A stretch of DNA of 36,398 nucleotides from Myxococcales bacterium (GTDB lineage Bacteria; Myxococcota; Myxococcia; Myxococcales; Myxococcaceae), in the NCBI GenBank assembly GCA_038248085.1, contig JBBRUE010000001.1:1-36398 (forward strand), in the 5' to 3' direction. Shown here piece after piece: positions 206 to 7,928 of this stretch. The position numbers were made by a program, and so were the translations under genes. The notes beneath the pieces were generated by a model. That model saw nothing but the letters and a program-made list of their open reading frames with translations. It was not told the DNA's origin and did no database searches. Every line of letters starts with the position of its first letter. Within the stretch, counting starts at the first letter, position 1.

Positions 206-604
206 TCAGTCCACCTGTATCGCGACGTCGTCGAGGAAGTCATCGGCTTCACCACGCTGGTGGTCGCGGAGCATCTTCGCGACCTTCCTCCGCATGCGGC
301 TGACCAGCGCGCGCATGGCCGTCTCCGGCTGGCCCCGCCCCAGCGGTCCGATGACCTCGGGCAGGTCCACCACCGCGTCGAAGTCGGGGGACGAGAGCAC
401 GAAGGTCGCGAGCACCTCCAGCTCTTCGTCGAGGTGCGAATTCATCTGGCGGCGAAGGTGCTGCGCCACGAGGTGCGGCTCCTTGTTCTTCACCGTGTCG
501 ATGAGCGTCTGAACCTCTGCGGTGATGTAGTCTGTCGGTCGAGTCGGGCGGCGGCCCGTGCGCTTGCGAGAGAGCATCAGGTCCTTGGTCATCAGGTCAG
601 TCAT
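206..604 (-). CDS. hypothetical protein (132 aa)
   Basis: Track ORF with balanced composition. Its ATG overlaps the stop of the upstream SNF2 gene by 1 nt (TGATG), suggesting translational coupling. Confidence 0.7.
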   Translation of the reverse strand: MTDLMTKDLMLSRKRTGRRPTRPTDYITAEVQTLIDTVKNKEPHLVAQHLRRQMNSHLDEELEVLATFVLSSPDFDAVVDLPEVIGPLGRGQPETAMRALVSRMRRKVAKMLRDHQRGEADDFLDDVAIQVD

Positions 605-2118
605 CAGAGCATTCCGAGGTCAGCGAGGCGGTTGGCGCGTGCAACGAGACGGGAAGTGATGTCTGCGAGCATGGCGGCTGGTGATACTTCCTCGGCCTTC
701 ACCCGTTTGTCCAGCGGAGAGAGGAACACACCGAACGAGTCCGCGATGCCGCCCGACTTCGTGCCGAGCCCGGACATCTGATCGATTTTGTGCACGAGCG
801 CCTCTGCGACGACTTCATCAGGGCCGTTGCGGACGCAGAGGTAGTAGTACATCACCGGGCGACGCTCCTTCTCGGGCTGTCGAGCCGGGTCGATGCGACC
901 CTCGCACTGGAGCATGGTGCCGGGCAGCCACGAGAAGTCCACGAAGACCATCGCGGCAGCTCGCGTGAGCGTGGCGCTCTCCTTCACCGCGTCGAGCGTG
1001 CAGACGAGTGCGGTTGCTTCGCCCGCCTTCCAGCGCTCGATGATTTTGTCACGCGCCACGTTGGTGGTGTCGCCCGTCGCGAGCAGCGCCTTCACCTTCG
1101 ACTTCTCCAGCAACGCGGCCAGCTTCGCGGCGTCTTCTCGGCGGTAGGTGTAGATGATCACCGGAGCGTCGATGTCCTGCGCGAGCTGCACGGCGGCGTC
1201 GAGCTTGTACTTCATCGCACCGCGACACGCGTCCGCGATGCCCGTCTCCTTGTCGAAGTGGTGAAGCTTCGCGGGCGAGATGCGCTCTGCCCCCGGTGCG
1301 TCCACGAGCTTCAGGGTGCGCTGCCTCACGGGCATCTGACCCATCACCTCGGCAGCCGAGCGGCCCATCACGAACGGCTTGATGTCCTCTTCGAGTCCGG
1401 CCTCGTCGAGCAAGTCACCGATGGTTTTGCCACGGCCCTTCTCCCCGACGTGGACGTTGAAATATTTGTAGCCGAAGTTCCAGAGCGAGCCGAACGAGTT
1501 GCGCGCGCAGATGTCGAGGAGGTTGTGCAGGTCGGGCGGACGGTTCTGGATGGGCGTGCCGGTGAGCAGCGTCGTCTGCGTGGAGCGCGCCACGAAGCTG
1601 CGGAGCACCTGCGCCCGGACCGTGGCCGCGCTCTTCATGTTGTGCGCTTCGTCGATGGTCACGGAGTCGAGGAGGATCTCGTTGGGCGTGATGAACGCGT
1701 CGATCTTCTCCGCCATCTCGTACGACGCGATGACGAGCGCCGGGCCCATCTCGCCGCGCAGCATCGCCTGCCACTTGCCGTGCTTGCGCAGTTCGAACGC
1801 TTCGTCCGTCTCCTTCACGCGCTGGTACGCGGCGTCTGAGCCCATGGTGTGGACCACCAGCTCGGGCCAGAACTTCTCCGCCTCGCGGCGCCAGTCGTGC
1901 GTGGAGATGGCCGTGGTGAAGACGAGGCCGCACGGGTTGGTCATGATGCCACGCTCGTAGCGCAGGCGCTGAGCCGCGAGCGCCGTGCGCGTCTTGCCCG
2001 TCCCGAGTCCATCGCTGAGGAGACGGCCACGCGTGTGCGGCGGCAGGTCCACGAGCCACTCAGCTCCGGCGAGCTGGTAGTCGCGGAGCGAGTCCTTCTT
2101 CCAGTTCACGACCTTCAC
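604..2118 (-). CDS. SNF2/RAD54-family DEAD/H-box helicase (504 aa)
   Basis: Motifs read in the translation: LRDYQLAGAEWL, GLGTGKTRTALAA (Walker A), TIDEAHNMK (DEAH box), LLTGTPIQNRPPDLHNLL (motif III). C-terminal helicase lobe with LQCEGRIDPARQ (motif VI-like). GTG start overlaps the upstream stop (GTGA). Confidence 0.9.
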   Translation of the reverse strand: MKVVNWKKDSLRDYQLAGAEWLVDLPPHTRGRLLSDGLGTGKTRTALAAQRLRYERGIMTNPCGLVFTTAISTHDWRREAEKFWPELVVHTMGSDAAYQRVKETDEAFELRKHGKWQAMLRGEMGPALVIASYEMAEKIDAFITPNEILLDSVTIDEAHNMKSAATVRAQVLRSFVARSTQTTLLTGTPIQNRPPDLHNLLDICARNSFGSLWNFGYKYFNVHVGEKGRGKTIGDLLDEAGLEEDIKPFVMGRSAAEVMGQMPVRQRTLKLVDAPGAERISPAKLHHFDKETGIADACRGAMKYKLDAAVQLAQDIDAPVIIYTYRREDAAKLAALLEKSKVKALLATGDTTNVARDKIIERWKAGEATALVCTLDAVKESATLTRAAAMVFVDFSWLPGTMLQCEGRIDPARQPEKERRPVMYYYLCVRNGPDEVVAEALVHKIDQMSGLGTKSGGIADSFGVFLSPLDKRVKAEEVSPAAMLADITSRLVARANRLADLGML

Positions 2119-3133: not shown

Positions 3134-3479
3134 GCGGAGTTCCCCAGTTAAGGTTGAGATACCCCCCATGTAGTAGTGCATAGGCGTTCCGGAAAGAGAA
3201 TTCGACTGGAAGCACATAACACTACTACATCCTAGGTATCTCTTGGAAAAACAAGTCCTTTCGTCATGCACTTGCGTGGCTCCTCATCCCCCTCCCCCTT
3301 GGGGATGTTTTAAGAGCGTTTCCGGAAACACCTAAATAGCTGAGTGATTACCGGGGTTTTTACCCCATGATTTCACTGATGTATTTCGTGTTTTCTGAAA
3401 ACGCTCATTCTTTGGGGGAGTCCCCTCGGGGGATGTCCAAGCCGCTAACCTCAGCAAACAGGTATTTAATGGTTTGCAC

Positions 3480-3730
3480 GCAGCGCGTCATTTCGTGTTT
3501 TTGGGCGAAAACGGCTCCAAACACGAAAAAGCCGCCAAAAAGGGCGGCTCGGTGTGACAGGTTCGCTCGGAGAATCGCTCGTGGCCGCCGCAGCGCGTCA
3601 TTTCGTGTTTTTGGGCGAAAACGGCTCCAAACACGAAAAAGCCGCCAAAAAGGGCGGGGCGAAAACGGCTCCAAACACGAAAAAGCCGCCAAAAAGGGCG
3701 GCTCGGTTCGGAGAATCGCTCGTGGCCGCC
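3480..3730. repeat. tandem direct repeats (~110-bp unit x2, with an internal 44-bp extra duplication)
   Basis: 3480-3547 is identical to 3590-3657 (68 bp). 3614-3657 is repeated again at 3658-3701. TCGGAGAATCGCTCGTGGCCGCC occurs at 3567-3589 and 3708-3730. The core 10-mer TTTCGTGTTT / AAACACGAAA occurs six times: 3384, 3491, 3601 forward; 3519, 3629, 3673 inverted. Confidence 0.95.
3675..3703 (-). terminator. intrinsic terminator of the helicase gene (two more copies inside the tandem repeats at ~3521-3549 and ~3631-3659)
   Basis: The minus strand reads AGCCGCC-CTTTTT-GGCGGCT followed by TTTTCGTGTTT. That is a 7-bp GC stem, 6-nt loop and T-run, 34 nt downstream of the stop at 3737. Confidence 0.6.
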
Positions 3731-3736
3731 CAGCAG

Positions 3737-4957
3737 CTACATCAGCCGGGCGCGGGTGATTCCGTCCTCATCGACCTCGCGTTTAGCAAGGCGGGCCATC
3801 TCCAGCGACACGAAGGCCTTCTGGAAGCGGTCGGAGTCGAGCACGGTGCGCTCCATCAGCTTGTGCTCCTCGATGCCCTCGCTGCCTGCATCGGCCAGCA
3901 CCCGGAGCATGCGGCGCGGGAGCTGATCGCCTTCGAGGTCCTTGTTGGACCGGGCGAAGGTCCGCTCCATCAGCACCGGGGCCGACTTGTGCCAGTGCTC
4001 CCAGAGCACGGCAGCCGCCTCCACGTCCTTCACGGAGATGACCAGCGAGCCGGGGTTCATGGCCACATGCTCGATGGCGGCCAGCTTGTGGAAGTGGCCG
4101 TCAGCGCGCTGCATCAGCTCCTTCACCTGCGGAGACTGGTCGGCGCGGTACTTGTCCTCGATCTTCAGGCGGAGCTTGGCGGCCTTCGGGTCGTAGGAGA
4201 GCAGCATCGGGTTCGGGCCCTTGTTCGCCTTCTTGGCCTCCCACTTCTCCCGCGTCTTCTGCCACTCACCCAGCAACTCATCGAGCTGCGTGGCGAGCTT
4301 CTGGTACACGCAGTCTTCCGGCGTCGTGGGCTCGCGCAGCTCGCGGTTCACGGAGCCGGGGATGAGCAGGCAGCGCGACATCATGCCGCCCAGCCAGTCC
4401 TCGGACGTGATGACCGTGGGCATCAGCGCGACGTTGATGCCGCCGAGCAGCGACACGCGAGGACGCACGAGCTTGTACTCCTCCTTCGACAGCATGCGCT
4501 TCCACTCAGGGGGGACCTCGTACCAGTCCATGAACATGCCCTTGCTGCCGCGCATGTAGTCCTTGGCCAGCGCAGAGAGGAAGGCCATCAGCTCGCCCTG
4601 CATCATCAGGTTCGCCGCGTTGCCCTCCATCGCCTGCTCGCGCTTGGCCAAGTCCCGCGCGAAGCCTTCAGGCGAGCCGTCGTCAGGAGCGCGCAGGTCC
4701 TTGCACTCTTCGCTGCGGCGCAGCACCTCGTGGTTCATGTGGACACAGGTGCTCTTGCGCGAGCGCCCAGCATCACCGACGAGAATCACCCAGAGGTTCG
4801 TCCAGCGGTGACCGGCGCCTCCATCCACATTGCACCGGTTCTTCTTCGTCGAGAGCGCCGCGCCGAGAAGCGCGGTCGCTGAAGCTCTGTGGAAGATGTG
4901 AGGTGCATCGGTGTACTTCATCAACGTCGCTTCGTAGTCCCGCAGGAAATTGCTCAA
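3737..4957 (-). CDS. P-loop NTPase, DUF3987 / P4-alpha- or D5-like replicative helicase candidate (406 aa)
   Basis: Clean track ORF. Walker-A-like LWVILVGDAGRSRKST. Size, composition and position next to the repeat/AT-rich region fit phage or plasmid DUF3987-type helicases. The family assignment is by eye only. Confidence 0.6.
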   Translation of the reverse strand: MSNFLRDYEATLMKYTDAPHIFHRASATALLGAALSTKKNRCNVDGGAGHRWTNLWVILVGDAGRSRKSTCVHMNHEVLRRSEECKDLRAPDDGSPEGFARDLAKREQAMEGNAANLMMQGELMAFLSALAKDYMRGSKGMFMDWYEVPPEWKRMLSKEEYKLVRPRVSLLGGINVALMPTVITSEDWLGGMMSRCLLIPGSVNRELREPTTPEDCVYQKLATQLDELLGEWQKTREKWEAKKANKGPNPMLLSYDPKAAKLRLKIEDKYRADQSPQVKELMQRADGHFHKLAAIEHVAMNPGSLVISVKDVEAAAVLWEHWHKSAPVLMERTFARSNKDLEGDQLPRRMLRVLADAGSEGIEEHKLMERTVLDSDRFQKAFVSLEMARLAKREVDEDGITRARLM

Positions 4958-5002: not shown

Positions 5003-5021
5003 TGTCAAACAAGATGTGACA
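5003..5021. promoter_or_regulatory. operator-like palindrome TGTCA-N9-TGACA (copy 1)
   Basis: Lies in the 93-bp divergent intergenic region between the helicase gene (minus) and the XRE HTH gene (plus). The same 5+9+5 architecture recurs at 6932-6950 and 34906-34924. Confidence 0.5.
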
Positions 5022-5050
5022 AGCCGGATCCGCGCTGGTATGAAGAGCGC

Positions 5051-5323
5051 ATGAGCGCTCTCGGTGCGGAGTTGTTGAAGCAGAGGACCAAGGCAGGGTG
5101 GACCCTGCGTGAAGTCCAGAAGCGCAGCGGCGTCTCGCGGCAGACGGTCTTCCGTGCCGAAACGGGAGAATTCATCTCCATGGGCGTGATTCTCAAGCTC
5201 GTCACCATCTACAACCTCTCAAACACGGCGAAGCGGAGCCTGCTGAATCAGTACGCGGACGAGACCATCAAGCGCGTGACCACCAAGCGGCGCAAGGCGC
5301 GCTCGGCTCGCGCCACCGCTTAG
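5051..5323 (+). CDS. XRE-family helix-turn-helix transcriptional regulator (90 aa)
   Basis: Track ORF 4889..5323 trimmed to the ATG at 5051. MSALGAELLKQRTKAGWTLREVQKRSGVSRQTVFRAETGEF is a typical Cro/CI-type HTH. Confidence 0.8.
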   Translation: MSALGAELLKQRTKAGWTLREVQKRSGVSRQTVFRAETGEFISMGVILKLVTIYNLSNTAKRSLLNQYADETIKRVTTKRRKARSARATA

Positions 5324-5333
5324 CGCTTCAACC

Positions 5334-5702
5334 TCACAGGTTCTTCCCGATGACCACGCCGATGCCGACGAGCGCTCCGACGATGAGGAGGCCGGGCAGG
5401 ATGCTGCCGCCATTCGACGCGCCAGCCGGAGCGATGGCCAGCTCGCCAGACGCACCGCGCAGGATGACGGTCGGCCTCAGCCAGCTCAGCAGAGGGTTGG
5501 GGGGGCCGCCAGCAGCGAGCTGGTTGGTGGCGATGCGGATGTTCGGCGTGAGCGAGCTGCGGAACTCGACCTCGGTGTAGACACCAGCAAGCAGGCCAGC
5601 CGGGTTGAGCGTGCCGTCTGCTCGCACGGTGCCTCCCGGGAAGCCTTGCGACTGGAGGGCAGCCTGCAGCGGGGCGATCAGGACTTCAGGGATGCCAGCC
5701 AT
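5334..5702 (-). CDS. tail-anchored membrane protein (122 aa)
   Basis: Track ORF with a C-terminal hydrophobic segment ILPGLLIVGALVGIGVVIGKNL. Convergent with the HTH gene. Confidence 0.7.
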   Translation of the reverse strand: MAGIPEVLIAPLQAALQSQGFPGGTVRADGTLNPAGLLAGVYTEVEFRSSLTPNIRIATNQLAAGGPPNPLLSWLRPTVILRGASGELAIAPAGASNGGSILPGLLIVGALVGIGVVIGKNL

Positions 5703-5781
5703 GCGCCGGTTCTACCATGAGCTGCGTGAGGCCCATGGAAACGTATCCGGCGCCGTACAGACTGTGAGAGAGTCCGGGACC

Positions 5782-6159
5782 ATGGCGACCAAGAAGAAGA
5801 CGGTGCAGCGGACCCGGCGTGAGCAGATCTACACGAAGGAAGAGACGGTCGTCTTCCTCAAGGAGATTCAAGCGGGGCTCTCCAGCTCGCGCTGGCCGTG
5901 GTACAAGGCCAATTCGGAGCGCCTCGGTCGCAGCTTCGTCAAGCACTTCCCTCCGCTCACGAAGCGCAAGGTGAACGACACCACCAACAAGCAGCTCGCG
6001 GGAACGCTGAGGATCATGGCTCGCGTGCTGACGCTTCAGCTCAAAGAGGAATCCGTTGGCCTCCCTGCATGGACGAACGCGGCGCTCCAGAACAACCTCC
6101 TCGTGCTCGAAGGTGCCGCGACCCGCCTCGAAGAGCTGTCCCGGTTCAGCCACGCCTGA
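5782..6159 (+). CDS. hypothetical basic protein (125 aa)
   Basis: Track ORF 5605..6159 trimmed to the ATG at 5782 (MATKKKTVQRTRREQIYTKEE...). The upstream part overlaps the minus-strand gene and is Arg/Ala-rich. Confidence 0.7.
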   Translation: MATKKKTVQRTRREQIYTKEETVVFLKEIQAGLSSSRWPWYKANSERLGRSFVKHFPPLTKRKVNDTTNKQLAGTLRIMARVLTLQLKEESVGLPAWTNAALQNNLLVLEGAATRLEELSRFSHA

Positions 6160-6620
6160 TGCGCTGTGTCCCCCGCCTCATCACGCTGGCCGAGGCACGG
6201 ACACACCTGCCGTTCCTCAGTCGCGCCGTGGAGCAGCACGTCCCCATGGCGCACTTCCAGTGGGCACCGCTCAACGACATGCCCTGCTGGGCGTGGCAGG
6301 GCTGGCTCGACGAGAAGCAGTACGGCCGCATCCGTTGGGGGGAGCAGCGCAGCGCGCGCGTGCATCGCGTCGTGTTCGAGACGCTGCGCGGCTCGTTGGA
6401 CCCAGCCGCCATCCTCGACCATGGCTGCCGGAACCATCCGTGCTGCAACCCGTGGCACCTGCAGCCGGTCACCATCGCGGTGAACACCGCGCGTGGTGCG
6501 CGAGCTGAGGGCATCTGCCGCAACGGCCTGCACGAGATGACAGGCGACAACGTCATCGAGCGGTGGCGCGATGGGCTGCCGCGCTACGAGTGCCGAGCCT
6601 GCAAGGCGGCACGCCAGTGA
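6159..6620 (+). CDS. HNH endonuclease (153 aa)
   Basis: Core motif LDHGCRNHPCCNPWHLQPVTIAVNTARG (H..C.N..C.NP.HL..V..N). Extra Cys pair at the C-terminus (YECRACKAA). ATG overlaps the upstream stop (TGATG). Confidence 0.85.
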   Translation: MRCVPRLITLAEARTHLPFLSRAVEQHVPMAHFQWAPLNDMPCWAWQGWLDEKQYGRIRWGEQRSARVHRVVFETLRGSLDPAAILDHGCRNHPCCNPWHLQPVTIAVNTARGARAEGICRNGLHEMTGDNVIERWRDGLPRYECRACKAARQ

Positions 6621-6892
6621 AGCGGCTCTACGAGTTTCGCTACACGGACACGGGGGAGCGGAACGGTCCGCAGATGCTGTGTGAGAACGCGTGTGAATTC
6701 TGGCTTCGTGCGTGGGACAAATTCCTCACGCGCCAAGGTGTGGTGCATTACACTTCAGGTGAAGGCGTTACGGGAAGAACGCTCGCCGTTCACGTCAGCT
6801 CGACCGGAGAGAGGGTCGTCATCGAGGGAGAGATCGGCGTACGTGCTCGGCTCTGGAACGAGCCGCTCACCGGCTGGGTGAAGCGCCGCTAG
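6617..6892 (+). CDS. hypothetical protein (91 aa)
   Basis: The GTG at 6617 overlaps the HNH stop (GTGA). VKRLYEFRYTDTGERNGPQMLCENACEFWLRAWDKF... has normal composition. Confidence 0.6.
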   Translation: MKRLYEFRYTDTGERNGPQMLCENACEFWLRAWDKFLTRQGVVHYTSGEGVTGRTLAVHVSSTGERVVIEGEIGVRARLWNEPLTGWVKRR

Positions 6893-6931
6893 GGCTCGCA
6901 TCTGGTCTGGTATCTTCATGTGCTCAGAAGA

Positions 6932-6950
6932 TGTCACATTACCCGTGACA
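6932..6950. promoter_or_regulatory. operator-like palindrome TGTCAC-N7-GTGACA (copy 2)
   Basis: Lies in the lower-GC intergenic region upstream of the ATPase operon. Same TGTCA-N9-TGACA frame as copies 1 and 3. Confidence 0.5.
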
Positions 6951-6981
6951 CCGTCCACACGCTTCTGATACCACCTCGGGC

Positions 6982-7113
6982 ATGCGTAATGACCCGGGCC
7001 TCCTGTACTTCTTCTTCGTCAAGCTCCTCGACGGTGCGCTTCGAGAAGGCGAAGAAGGAGCTGCTGTGAGCACGCATGCGAACGAGTTGTCGGAGCGACT
7101 GGAAGCCCTGTGA
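6982..7113 (+). CDS. possible 43-aa small protein (below track threshold)
   Basis: ATG 6982 ... TGA 7111-7113 overlaps the ATPase ATG (TGATG). MRNDPGLLYFFFVKLLDGALREGEEGAAVSTHANELSERLEAL. Third-position GC is moderate. Confidence 0.3.
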   Translation: MRNDPGLLYFFFVKLLDGALREGEEGAAVSTHANELSERLEAL

Positions 7114-7928
7114 TGAAGCTCGTCCTCAACAAGAAGCAGAAGCTCGTCATCGACATGGAGGACGAGCAGGTGAAGGCCGACGGCCTTCGTGTCTTCATCG
7201 GGGGTGAATCCGGCTCTGGCAAGAGCAACGCGGCCATGCTCATCGCCTCGCAGTGGGTGGAGCAGAACGGTCAGGTCATCGTGCTCGACTCGCACGGCGA
7301 GTACGGCGCGCTCTGGGAGACGCGGCCCGGCGGCGCTCACCCGGTCGTCCGCTTCGGCTACGGCGAGCCGCCGGTGCGTGAGGAGTCGGTCGAGATGTGC
7401 ATGAGCTACATCCGCGACGGCCACAGCCTCGTGCTCGACCTCTCGCACTGGACCGACCTGCACCCGGAGACGCTCGACAAGTTCGTGCGTGACCTGCTCA
7501 AGGACCTGTACGAGCTGCGCCGCCACAAGCCCAAGCGCACGCTCATCCTCGTCGAGGAGGCGCAGGTCTACGCGCCGCAGCAGCAGATGTCGGGGCAGGC
7601 GGCAAACATCCGCATGTTCACCGCGCTCATCACCGGTGGCCGGAAGTTCGGCCTCAACTTCGTGCTGGGCACGCAGCGCCAGTCTCTCGTGGACAGCAAC
7701 GTCATCGCGGGCTGCAACGTGCGTCTCTTCATGCGCATCTCGGAGGCCAAGGACTGGAAGAAGCTCAAGCCGTACATTCCGCCTCGCTGCCCGGTGCAGT
7801 TCGGAGGCAACGTGAAGCGCGACATCGCGCGCTTCGCTTCGGGCGAAGTGCTGGCGCTCTCGCGCTGGTTCGGTACACAGCGAGTGCGGCTCGACCTCCC
7901 CGAAGTCCCCGTGAAGAAGTTCCTCTAG
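7113..7928 (+). CDS. HerA/FtsK (DUF87)-type P-loop ATPase; candidate genome-packaging ATPase (271 aa)
   Basis: FIGGESGSGKSNAAMLIASQW (Walker A), QVIVLDSHGEYGAL, RTLILVEEAQVYAP (Walker B) and GGRKFGLNFVLGTQRQSLVDSNVIAGCNVRLFMRI together form the HerA/DUF87 central-domain pattern. Too short for a terminase and has no nuclease domain. Confidence 0.85.
   Translation: MKLVLNKKQKLVIDMEDEQVKADGLRVFIGGESGSGKSNAAMLIASQWVEQNGQVIVLDSHGEYGALWETRPGGAHPVVRFGYGEPPVREESVEMCMSYIRDGHSLVLDLSHWTDLHPETLDKFVRDLLKDLYELRRHKPKRTLILVEEAQVYAPQQQMSGQAANIRMFTALITGGRKFGLNFVLGTQRQSLVDSNVIAGCNVRLFMRISEAKDWKKLKPYIPPRCPVQFGGNVKRDIARFASGEVLALSRWFGTQRVRLDLPEVPVKKFL

Follow-up and report, generated by a model that had tools for sequence, protein, structure and literature searches.

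The window analyzed in this work, a 36,398-nucleotide stretch of the metagenomic contig JBBRUE010000001.1 (65% GC), carries three copies of a 19-bp palindrome, TGTCAC-N7-GTGACA, which is very probably a genuine motif and regulatory in nature. Judged from its sequence, the element appears to be a high-GC phage, uncultivated so far, whose signals are of the actinobacterial type (leaderless genes and −10 boxes of the form TAnnnT), and the palindrome would be the operator of a phage-encoded dimeric helix-turn-helix (HTH) regulator, most probably a 90-residue protein of the XRE family whose gene adjoins one of the copies. This XRE protein is a likely binder of the sites. That the palindromes are operators of a dimeric XRE repressor, acting by occlusion of −35 hexamers, is the explanation that we favor overall, with some reserve.

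The first piece of information came from the initial annotation of the window, which reported three exact TGTCA-N9-TGACA palindromes, all in intergenic control regions, without any further copy in coding sequence and in a number not expected by chance. An exhaustive search of both strands of the whole window bore out each of these points, as the pattern TGTCANNNNNNNNNTGACA was matched exactly at sites 1, 2 and 3 (Table 1) and nowhere else, with the sequences originally quoted, and not one copy appeared in 100 dinucleotide-preserving shuffles of the window (mean 0.00). The flanking gene starts and stops place all three copies in intergenic DNA: site 1 lies between the start of the minus-strand DUF3987 gene (4957) and that of the XRE gene (5051), site 2 between a stop codon at 6892 and an ATG at 6982, and site 3 between a stop at 35044 and a start at 34845, both on the minus strand. 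The 5+9+5 frame in which the palindrome was first described is exact within the window, although the motif proved to be longer, with a 6+7+6 architecture that is perfect in sites 2 and 3 and contains one mismatch in site 1 (TGTCAA-N7-GTGACA). Allowing up to two mismatches to the 12 specified bases added no window site to the three already known, in coding DNA or elsewhere, and at three mismatches 13 matches were found versus 14.3 expected; therefore, the palindromes are not surrounded by a halo of degenerate copies. Lone half-site pentamers are, if anything, scarce in the window (8 and 10, versus about 19–20 expected from base composition).

A second key observation was that the palindrome is a trait of a whole phage family. 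Loci were fetched around some 15 non-redundant members of the 45 metagenomic homologs that a protein search returned for the DUF3987 protein, yielding 248 kb of non-redundant sequence; the complete contigs of the relatives measure 40–108 kb (fetched loci are denoted here by L and a number, followed, where needed, by the position). Their DUF3987 proteins are 33–70% identical and synteny is kept, with the XRE gene divergent from the DUF3987 and SNF2 genes and, on its other side, a small membrane-like gene, an HNH gene and the ATPase operon. In these loci TGTCAC-N7-GTGACA occurs 32 times with at most one mismatch, versus 0.37 expected. When the spacing of TGTCA-Nk-TGACA was scanned from k = 3 to 15, 24 matches were found at k = 9 and none at any other value, and the everted arrangement gave a single match (k = 5). 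In 40 of 48 half-sites the inner base, which the search did not specify, is G/C, the outermost T/A is sometimes C/G, and the spacer is free in sequence, with a weak purine/pyrimidine (RY) preference beside the arms.

The copies of the relatives recur at equivalent places, namely the XRE/DUF3987 intergenic region (12 related lineages have a copy at the position of site 1), upstream of the ATPase operon, as in site 2 (L007:5676, L021:9130, L024:8375, L026:9200, L029:12181, L004:7199, L033:9112 and L034:6960), and upstream of AAA_24 replication genes. For the region of site 3 no ortholog was found in the fetched loci, where the proteins of the right arm are unmatched. Within the XRE/DUF3987 region the palindrome is the sole conserved block besides the TA of the −10 box, the start codons and the Shine–Dalgarno sequences. 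A crude mask of open reading frames (ORFs) left 23 of the 32 family copies in intergenic DNA, and at least four of the nine masked copies are also intergenic according to the gene calls of the collection or to inspection (L021:9130, L019:9750, L024:8375 and L007:8780), while L019:12517 falls in the last 17 nucleotides (nt) of a gene. The full dyad is kept even where genes flank one side only (W:6932, that is, site 2, as well as L019:7152 and L026:15033). The fixed spacing, the free spacer and the dyads in one-sided contexts point to a dimeric protein rather than to two −35 boxes or a hairpin. On this evidence it is certain, for practical purposes, that chance is ruled out and that the palindrome is a functional cis-element. 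The dyad is thus repeated far above chance, mostly in intergenic control regions, and the earlier proposal of an operator set gained strong support from finding the same palindrome, with the same spacing, two to five times per ~20 kb in distant relatives. A literature search for the exact motif retrieved no report of it.

The relationship between the palindrome and the presumed promoters was also informative. Many genes of these phages start 5–8 nt after a TAnnnT-like hexamer, and their mRNAs are probably leaderless, with actinobacterial-type −10 boxes. The arrangement GTGACA-N17/18-TAnnnn-N5-8-ATG/GTG, opening an ORF of at least 40 residues, is present at 12 of 34 family sites versus 0.4% of random positions. 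On the XRE side of site 1, GTGACA (5016-5021) is followed after 17 nt by TATGAA and, 6 nt later, by the ATG at 5051, a geometry shared by the XRE promoters of L007, L024 and L026 and, by eye, by those of L019, L020, L005 and L029. At site 2, GTGACA is followed by 18 nt, TACCAC, 7 nt and the ATG at 6982. Read on the minus strand, the left half of site 1 is TTGACA (5008-5003), a consensus −35 hexamer facing the DUF3987 gene, and in most relatives the half on this side reads TTGACR instead of GTGACA, as if it also served as a −35 box. The promoter-like position claimed for the copies gained support from their equivalent intergenic places in relatives and, for sites 1 and 2, from their predicted overlap with the −35 boxes of putative leaderless promoters. 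A scan for E. coli-type promoters gave nothing at any site of the window, and the promoters proposed here rest on the actinobacterial TAnnnT/leaderless pattern. In several relatives the palindrome, including copies of the ATPase operon, is found 10–17 nt from the start codon or between the −35 and −10 boxes (L029:12181, L019:171, L026:9200 and L004:7199), and repression was preferred to activation because sites overlapping the −35 box, the spacer or the start are repressor positions; regulation by repression is therefore considered likely.

The RecA-NDp motif of PafBC (TGTCRGTG-N8-TAnnnT) was considered as a candidate identity for these sites and rejected, as neither the distance to the −10 box nor bases 7–9 fit. 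Site 2 is also bracketed, almost symmetrically, by an outer inverted repeat, GGTATC...GATACC (6909-6914 and 6967-6972), at distances of 17 and 16 nt. Its right copy overlaps the putative −10 box of the site 2 promoter, and the left copy would supply TACCAG in mirror image, at 19 nt from the opposite half-site; a weak antisense promoter is therefore possible.

What, then, would bind the palindrome? Among the proteins of the window, Pfam recognizes a single sequence-specific DNA binder, the XRE protein (PF01381, HTH_3, E = 1e-8, 35.5 bits with a cut-off of 23; PF13560, 34 bits with a cut-off of 27). A single-sequence monomer model produced with AlphaFold2 (AF2; predicted local distance difference test score, pLDDT, 87.6) predicts helices at residues 3–15, 19–26, 30–37, 44–53 and 58–89, that is, a five-helix lambda-repressor-like fold ending in a long C-terminal helix. 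The top fold matches of this model in the PDB (ClgR, HipB, C-proteins, SinR and 434 Cro; Foldseek probability 1.00, with E values of only 3e-3 to 5e-2 for this small domain) are all XRE-fold proteins and dimeric palindrome binders, and C.Esp1396I, among the close matches, was solved on a 19-bp duplex. The recognition helix, S29-R-Q-T-V-F-R-A-E37 (helix 3, SRQTVxRAE in the alignment of orthologs), is the best-conserved segment of the protein, and R35, equivalent to Q33 of 434, is invariant in all GTGACA-type genomes. In addition, the XRE gene is divergent from the DUF3987 gene in every locus that reaches far enough upstream (in L026 it had been missed by the gene caller of the collection), and most of these loci, L003 and L009 excepted, have a copy of the palindrome in the intergenic region between both genes.

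Another clue was derived from the genomes in which the palindrome differs. L004 and L033, which form one clade, have the helix SYEAVRLVE and the palindrome TGTCAA-N7-TTGACR, in three to eight copies, while L034, nested among GTGACA-type genomes on the DUF3987 tree, has the helix SHQTLHNAE and the palindrome TGTAAA-N7-TWGACA. The five copies of the latter are found at the same positions as in the rest of the family (XRE/DUF3987, ATPase, AAA_24 and two more). On the DUF3987 tree, three helix types are therefore paired with three palindrome types by two independent changes, and two such co-variations of helix and palindrome are what a phage-encoded binder, and specifically XRE, would predict. The suggestion that XRE is the binder thus gained support from synteny, the conservation of the helix, the co-variation and its standing as the sole Pfam-recognized DNA binder, and it is stated here as a likely assignment.

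The recognition helix RQTVFRAE is shared by an XRE protein encoded at 3900-4240 of L028, an IMG/VR contig of 52% GC from an unrelated phage. In this 8-kb locus all three GTGACA hexamers are located right beside the XRE gene, as direct TGTGACAT repeats, one of them within a TTGACT-N18-TATACT promoter. L028 may represent an independent link between the RQTVFRAE helix and the GTGACA half-site.

A number of observations do not sit comfortably with an XRE repressor that occludes −35 boxes. No recognizable TAnnnT box was found at promoter distance on the DUF3987 side of site 1, or on either side of site 3. In L003 and L009, copies with the N7 spacer exist elsewhere in the locus, but the half-sites beside the XRE gene are about 36 nt apart. 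Position 30 of the recognition helix varies (R/H/Y/P) without any change in the operator; the co-variation amounts to two events only and could reflect a host switch, as the variant half-sites are nearer to the canonical −35 hexamer TTGACA. Finally, the XRE protein lacks a sensor or cleavage domain, and an integrase was found neither in the window nor, within ±10 kb, in the relatives, so that a global repressor might act either in lysogeny or as a temporal switch.

Other explanations share part of this evidence. One of them keeps both the operator and the XRE binder and makes the protein an activator, in a class II-like or MotA-like manner, which would sit at about −39 and supply or replace the recognition of the −35 box, in which case the palindrome would represent a promoter code of the phage itself and not a site of repression. 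Indeed, in the putative leaderless promoters the dyad is centered at about −39/−40, close to where class II activators sit, the hexamer GTGACA is sub-optimal as a −35 box, sites are present upstream of nearly every major transcription unit and, in a phage without an integrase, a lytic temporal activator is plausible. However, the four sites named above are too near the start codon, or lie between the −35 and −10 boxes, for activation, the proximal half is already consensus TTGACA in L004, L033 and L034, where no help would be needed, and the promoter of the XRE gene itself has the same site in the same geometry, all of which makes activation unlikely. A different phage protein could instead be the binder, most elements of the proteome being unannotated, and one candidate is the 70-residue ORF at 34402-34614 on the minus strand, which reads ERLLVSLTAEERAQLEAQAAKMS, a strand–helix start typical of ribbon-helix-helix (RHH) proteins; any of the many unannotated small proteins is another. 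This alternative is distinctly unlikely: Pfam gives no RHH match, the homolog of this ORF is absent from the site-bearing parts of the relatives, where XRE is always found, and it is the XRE helix that co-varies with the palindrome. Moreover, the usual targets of RHH proteins are short repeats, in tandem or closely spaced, rather than 6+7+6 dyads.

The palindrome could also be read by a global regulator of the host, such as a member of the CRP/FNR family, so that the phage promoters would be wired to host physiology. The mycobacterial protein Cmr (Rv1675c) binds TGTCA-N6-TGACA, with the same half-sites (PMC4705688), the promoter signals look actinobacterial and one relative, L003, is located in a Salinibacterium metagenome-assembled genome (MAG). 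Yet the 16-bp sites with a 6-nt gap that this family would demand are absent from the 248 kb (0 at N6 versus 24 at N9), CRP-family dimers are rigid in spacing, and the motif changes between close phage relatives along with their own XRE helix, which leaves a host regulator very unlikely. Alternatively, no dedicated regulator might exist, the palindrome being two back-to-back −35 hexamers of bidirectional sigma-A promoters. The half-sites do resemble TTGACA, the half proximal to DUF3987 is usually TTGACR at the XRE/DUF3987 site, and the variants of the L004/L033 and L034 types are consensus TTGACA; on the other hand, the inner base is G, and not T, in 40 of 48 halves, two independent promoters offer no rationale for an exact 7-nt gap, full dyads are kept with a gene on one side only, and the distal half of L034, TGTAAA (reverse complement TTTACA), departs from the consensus at a conserved G in five of five sites. 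This explanation is considered highly improbable. Lastly, a hairpin or cruciform in RNA or single-stranded DNA, serving as a signal for termination, processing, packaging or recombination, is barely credible. A stem of 6 bp closing a loop of 7 nt is possible, although the predicted hairpins are weak (−5.9 to −10 kcal/mol; z scores from −0.35 to −1.3), no T-run follows, no terminator was called at the sites and no Rfam match was obtained. It is the stem sequence that is conserved, and not its pairing, as variants with one mismatch are uncompensated and symmetric changes are seen only at the outermost base; neither the stability, the T-run nor the compensatory changes of an intrinsic terminator or conserved hairpin are thus in evidence. 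In leaderless promoters, furthermore, the site would be upstream of the transcript.

The XRE repressor remains the favored explanation, and from the position, symmetry and co-variation of the sites we infer binding by XRE, its dimeric nature and repression through −35 occlusion. In this model, every 19-bp dyad would be occupied by one XRE dimer. The half-sites of site 1 would double as the two back-to-back −35 hexamers from which the XRE and DUF3987 promoters diverge; therefore, a single bound dimer would shut both of them, resulting in negative autoregulation and in regulation of the replication operon. In site 2, the half-site nearer to the gene would serve as the −35 box for the leaderless promoter that drives the small-ORF/ATPase (late) operon, and site 3 would control or block a third leftward unit. 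A bolder proposal, which we regard as doubtful, is that the XRE dimer is the master timing device of a virulent, structurally unrecognizable phage family and not a lysogeny repressor. The 19-bp dyad would imitate two −35 boxes, and would actually consist of them in some lineages, so that XRE would compete with sigma region 4, or take its place, at all major transcription units (the XRE gene, the packaging/late operon and two replication operons). The specificity of XRE would be re-tuned from lineage to lineage along with the −35-like half-site. If true, nature would have provided portable, orthogonal regulator/operator pairs for leaderless actinobacterial promoters.

These results offer a first handle on gene regulation in a phage family with almost no annotatable genes, and define its transcription units. 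The leaderless mRNAs and TAnnnT boxes, if correctly predicted, hint at an actinobacterial-type host, and the three regulator/operator pairs, which co-vary naturally, could find use as orthogonal switches in high-GC bacteria. The arrangement itself is conceptually a standard phage operator/regulator system and does not change any general picture.

Table 1. Palindromes, putative −10 boxes and main genes of the window (positions are those of the window).
Feature	Position	Strand	Description
SNF2 helicase gene	604-2118		in leftward replication operon, after the DUF3987 gene
DUF3987 primase/helicase-like gene	3737..4957	−	PHROG DNA primase/helicase matches; PF13148 in homologs
Site 1	5003..5021		TGTCAAacaagatGTGACA; divergent XRE/DUF3987 control region
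Putative −10 box, XRE promoter	5039..5044	+	TATGAA; from geometry, leaderless mRNA implied
XRE HTH regulator gene	5051..5323	+	90 residues; Pfam HTH_3, HTH_31
Site 2	6932..6950		TGTCACattacccGTGACA; perfect 6+7+6; 5' of 43-residue ORF and DUF87/HerA-type ATPase gene
Putative −10 box, site 2	6969..6974	+	TACCAC; from predicted leaderless geometry
Transcription unit 3' of site 2	6982..7928	+	43-residue ORF (6982-7113), then 271-residue ATPase (7113-7928)
Site 3	34906..34924		TGTCACatcctgcGTGACA; perfect 6+7+6; 60 nt 5' of minus-strand 47-residue ORF

The gene content of the element is phage-like and mostly unannotatable with Pfam and PHROGs. Two near-identical contigs are available, from a sediment metagenome and one other metagenome, and the sequencing runs that contain the sequence are metagenomic DNA only, with no RNA runs among them. 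The window has no terminal repeat and may be an incomplete genome. Relatives were found only through protein searches and profile scans: among 50,697 phage records, megablast with 25 kb and tblastn with the DUF3987, XRE and ATPase proteins returned only one HerA-like match, 26% identical, the family is absent from INPHARED, scans of IMG/VR with the DUF3987 protein and profile gave no relative, and neither did a single-protein genome scan. The XRE profile detected one unrelated contig in IMG/VR (L028, described above) and a search for XRE homologs only one additional protein. The family is known only from groundwater, sediment and freshwater metagenomes, without any cultured relative.

The pair flanking site 1 had been described as a divergent helicase and XRE gene; the genes are indeed divergent, but the partner of XRE is the primase/helicase-like DUF3987 gene, the first of the leftward replication operon, and the SNF2 helicase is encoded further left. 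XRE is a lone rightward gene between two leftward genes, and its stop codon (5323) and that of a convergent 122-residue gene (5334) are 10 nt apart (5321-5336), without a terminator; transcription of XRE should therefore run into that of the leftward genes, or the RNAs of both should overlap as antisense. Directly 3' of the DUF3987 gene there is a 465-nt non-coding stretch of lower GC content (3272-3736, GC 0.57) with long direct repeats, in which 3480-3553 recurs at ~3592-3660 as a direct repeat and 3613-3701 forms a perfect 44-nt tandem, each unit with a GCCGCC-aaaaa-GGGCGGC hairpin. A gap of 210–400 nt is kept at this place in relatives, and the stretch is a candidate for a replication origin (iterons) or a terminator stack.

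Besides the HNH endonuclease gene, the region to the right of XRE contains the DUF87/HerA-FtsK-type ATPase (Pfam DUF87, 6.6e-10; PHROG 2666, 'terminase large subunit', 1e-18), which is 53–73% identical to the ATPases of the relatives and heads a ~25-kb rightward (late) block encoding RadC, a transglutaminase-like protein, a GP88 domain, VanY and a peptidoglycan-binding protein. In this block the ATPase is followed by proteins of 1182 and 866 residues without a known fold. No capsid, portal or terminase was recognizable by Pfam or PHROGs in 7113-32984 or in the relatives, and no integrase, recombinase or second HTH protein was detected by Pfam in the scanned ORFs of the window or in the precomputed Pfam lists of the relatives. 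A sigma-70-family gene was not found among the window ORFs scanned; L033 encodes its own factor of this family within the late region (5675-6610, Sigma70_r2 and r4, 311 residues). ARAGORN detected no tRNA in the window, and at ~11880-12100 of L029, on the minus strand and just 5' of the palindrome of the ATPase operon, there are two tRNA-like sequences with the T-arms GGTTCGAACC and GGATTCGAACC.

Downstream of site 3 runs a minus-strand series made of a Cys-rich 47-residue ORF (34702-34845; MRCPDCNKF...DEC), the RHH-like 70-residue ORF (34402-34614), a 114-residue ORF and a 326-residue ORF. The 47- and 70-residue ORFs near the site have no Pfam match. The last ORF (33132-34112, minus strand) has a coding-like GC content at third codon positions (GC3), and no homolog of it, not even itself, was present in a collection of 5.8 billion proteins, where it is perhaps uncalled. 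On the other side, a 124-residue protein (35925-36299, minus strand) has a CXXCXGXG zinc-finger region resembling Anti-TRAP and the DnaJ central domain, below Pfam cut-offs. The window also avoids short palindromes to an extreme (observed/expected: CCWGG 0/~90, CTCGAG 0/28, GAGCTC 0/32, CACGTG 0/10, CAGCTG 1/30, GCCGGC 1/30 and CCGCGG 1/27), as do L007, L019, L021, L024 and L029. GATC is absent from 7 of the 11 tabulated relatives (0 versus 31–87 expected) and nearly so from L004 and L007 (1–2 versus 64–70), is not avoided in L016 and L014, and occurs 79 times in the window versus 149 expected. This avoidance constitutes a strong anti-restriction signature that differs by lineage.

Compared with known systems, the arrangement predicted here would work, by analogy, like an autoregulated operator set of the lambdoid or C-protein type. 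The operators of lambdoid CI and Cro (lambda OR/OL, 434 and P22), bound by HTH dimers of the XRE/Cro-C1 type, are several free-spacer dyads in a divergent switch region beside the regulator gene, and they overlap promoter hexamers, as is predicted for the present sites; the transcript of the regulator is leaderless at lambda PRM, as predicted here for XRE. The lambda half-site, TATCAC, resembles the TGTCAC described above, and 434 Cro is among both the sequence and the fold matches of the XRE protein. In contrast, the present sites are longer (19 bp, 6+7+6, versus 14–17 bp), are single and isolated at each promoter instead of forming triplets with cooperative binding, and are also found upstream of the late/packaging operon; the regulator, of 90 residues, has no cleavable C-terminal domain, no relationship in sequence was detected apart from the HTH fold, and neither an integrase or maintenance genes nor a second partner, as in the CI and Cro pair of temperate phages, was identified.

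The stoperators of mycobacteriophage L5 gp71 (GGTGGMTGTCAAG) are asymmetric 13-mers bound by a monomer, with ~30 copies that are orientation-dependent and in many cases inside transcription units; their core, TGTCAA(G), is the reverse complement of the −35 hexamer TTGACA, and the repressor competes with sigma at early promoters. This actinophage system is similar in its many copies over the genome and would be so in the competition for −35 boxes, and the sites of the L004 type often read TGTCAAG. The sites described here are nevertheless symmetric 19-mers, three to eight per genome and intergenic, unlike stoperators, and gp71 is not an XRE-family relative of the present protein (no match in the phage collection). 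ClgR (PDB 3f51 and 5woq), a palindrome-binding dimer of actinobacteria, matches XRE best in structure, the long C-terminal helix included, and is near the best in sequence. The identity between both proteins is, however, only 24–30%. ClgR is a host activator of clp and lon genes, with a different operator.

The controller (C) proteins of restriction-modification systems, with their C-boxes, and HipB are small XRE-fold dimers (~70–100 residues) that autoregulate from 18–19-bp dyads over their own promoters, often with leaderless transcripts, and C.BclI, C.AhdI, C.Esp1396I and HipB are among the top matches of the XRE protein. HipB operators read TATCC-N8-GGATA. These regulators differ in that they control a cassette of two or three genes, whereas the sites described here head transcription units throughout the phage, and their operator sequences are unrelated. 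The Cmr sites share palindromic symmetry and identical 5-nt half-sites with those of the phage and differ in the spacer (6 versus 9), the protein family and the regulon, which is that of a host and not of a phage (PMC4705688). Considering the 6+7+6 length, the single rather than tandem sites, the copies before replication and packaging operons, and the lack of an integrase or a second switch protein, the palindrome set falls outside every characterized operator family.

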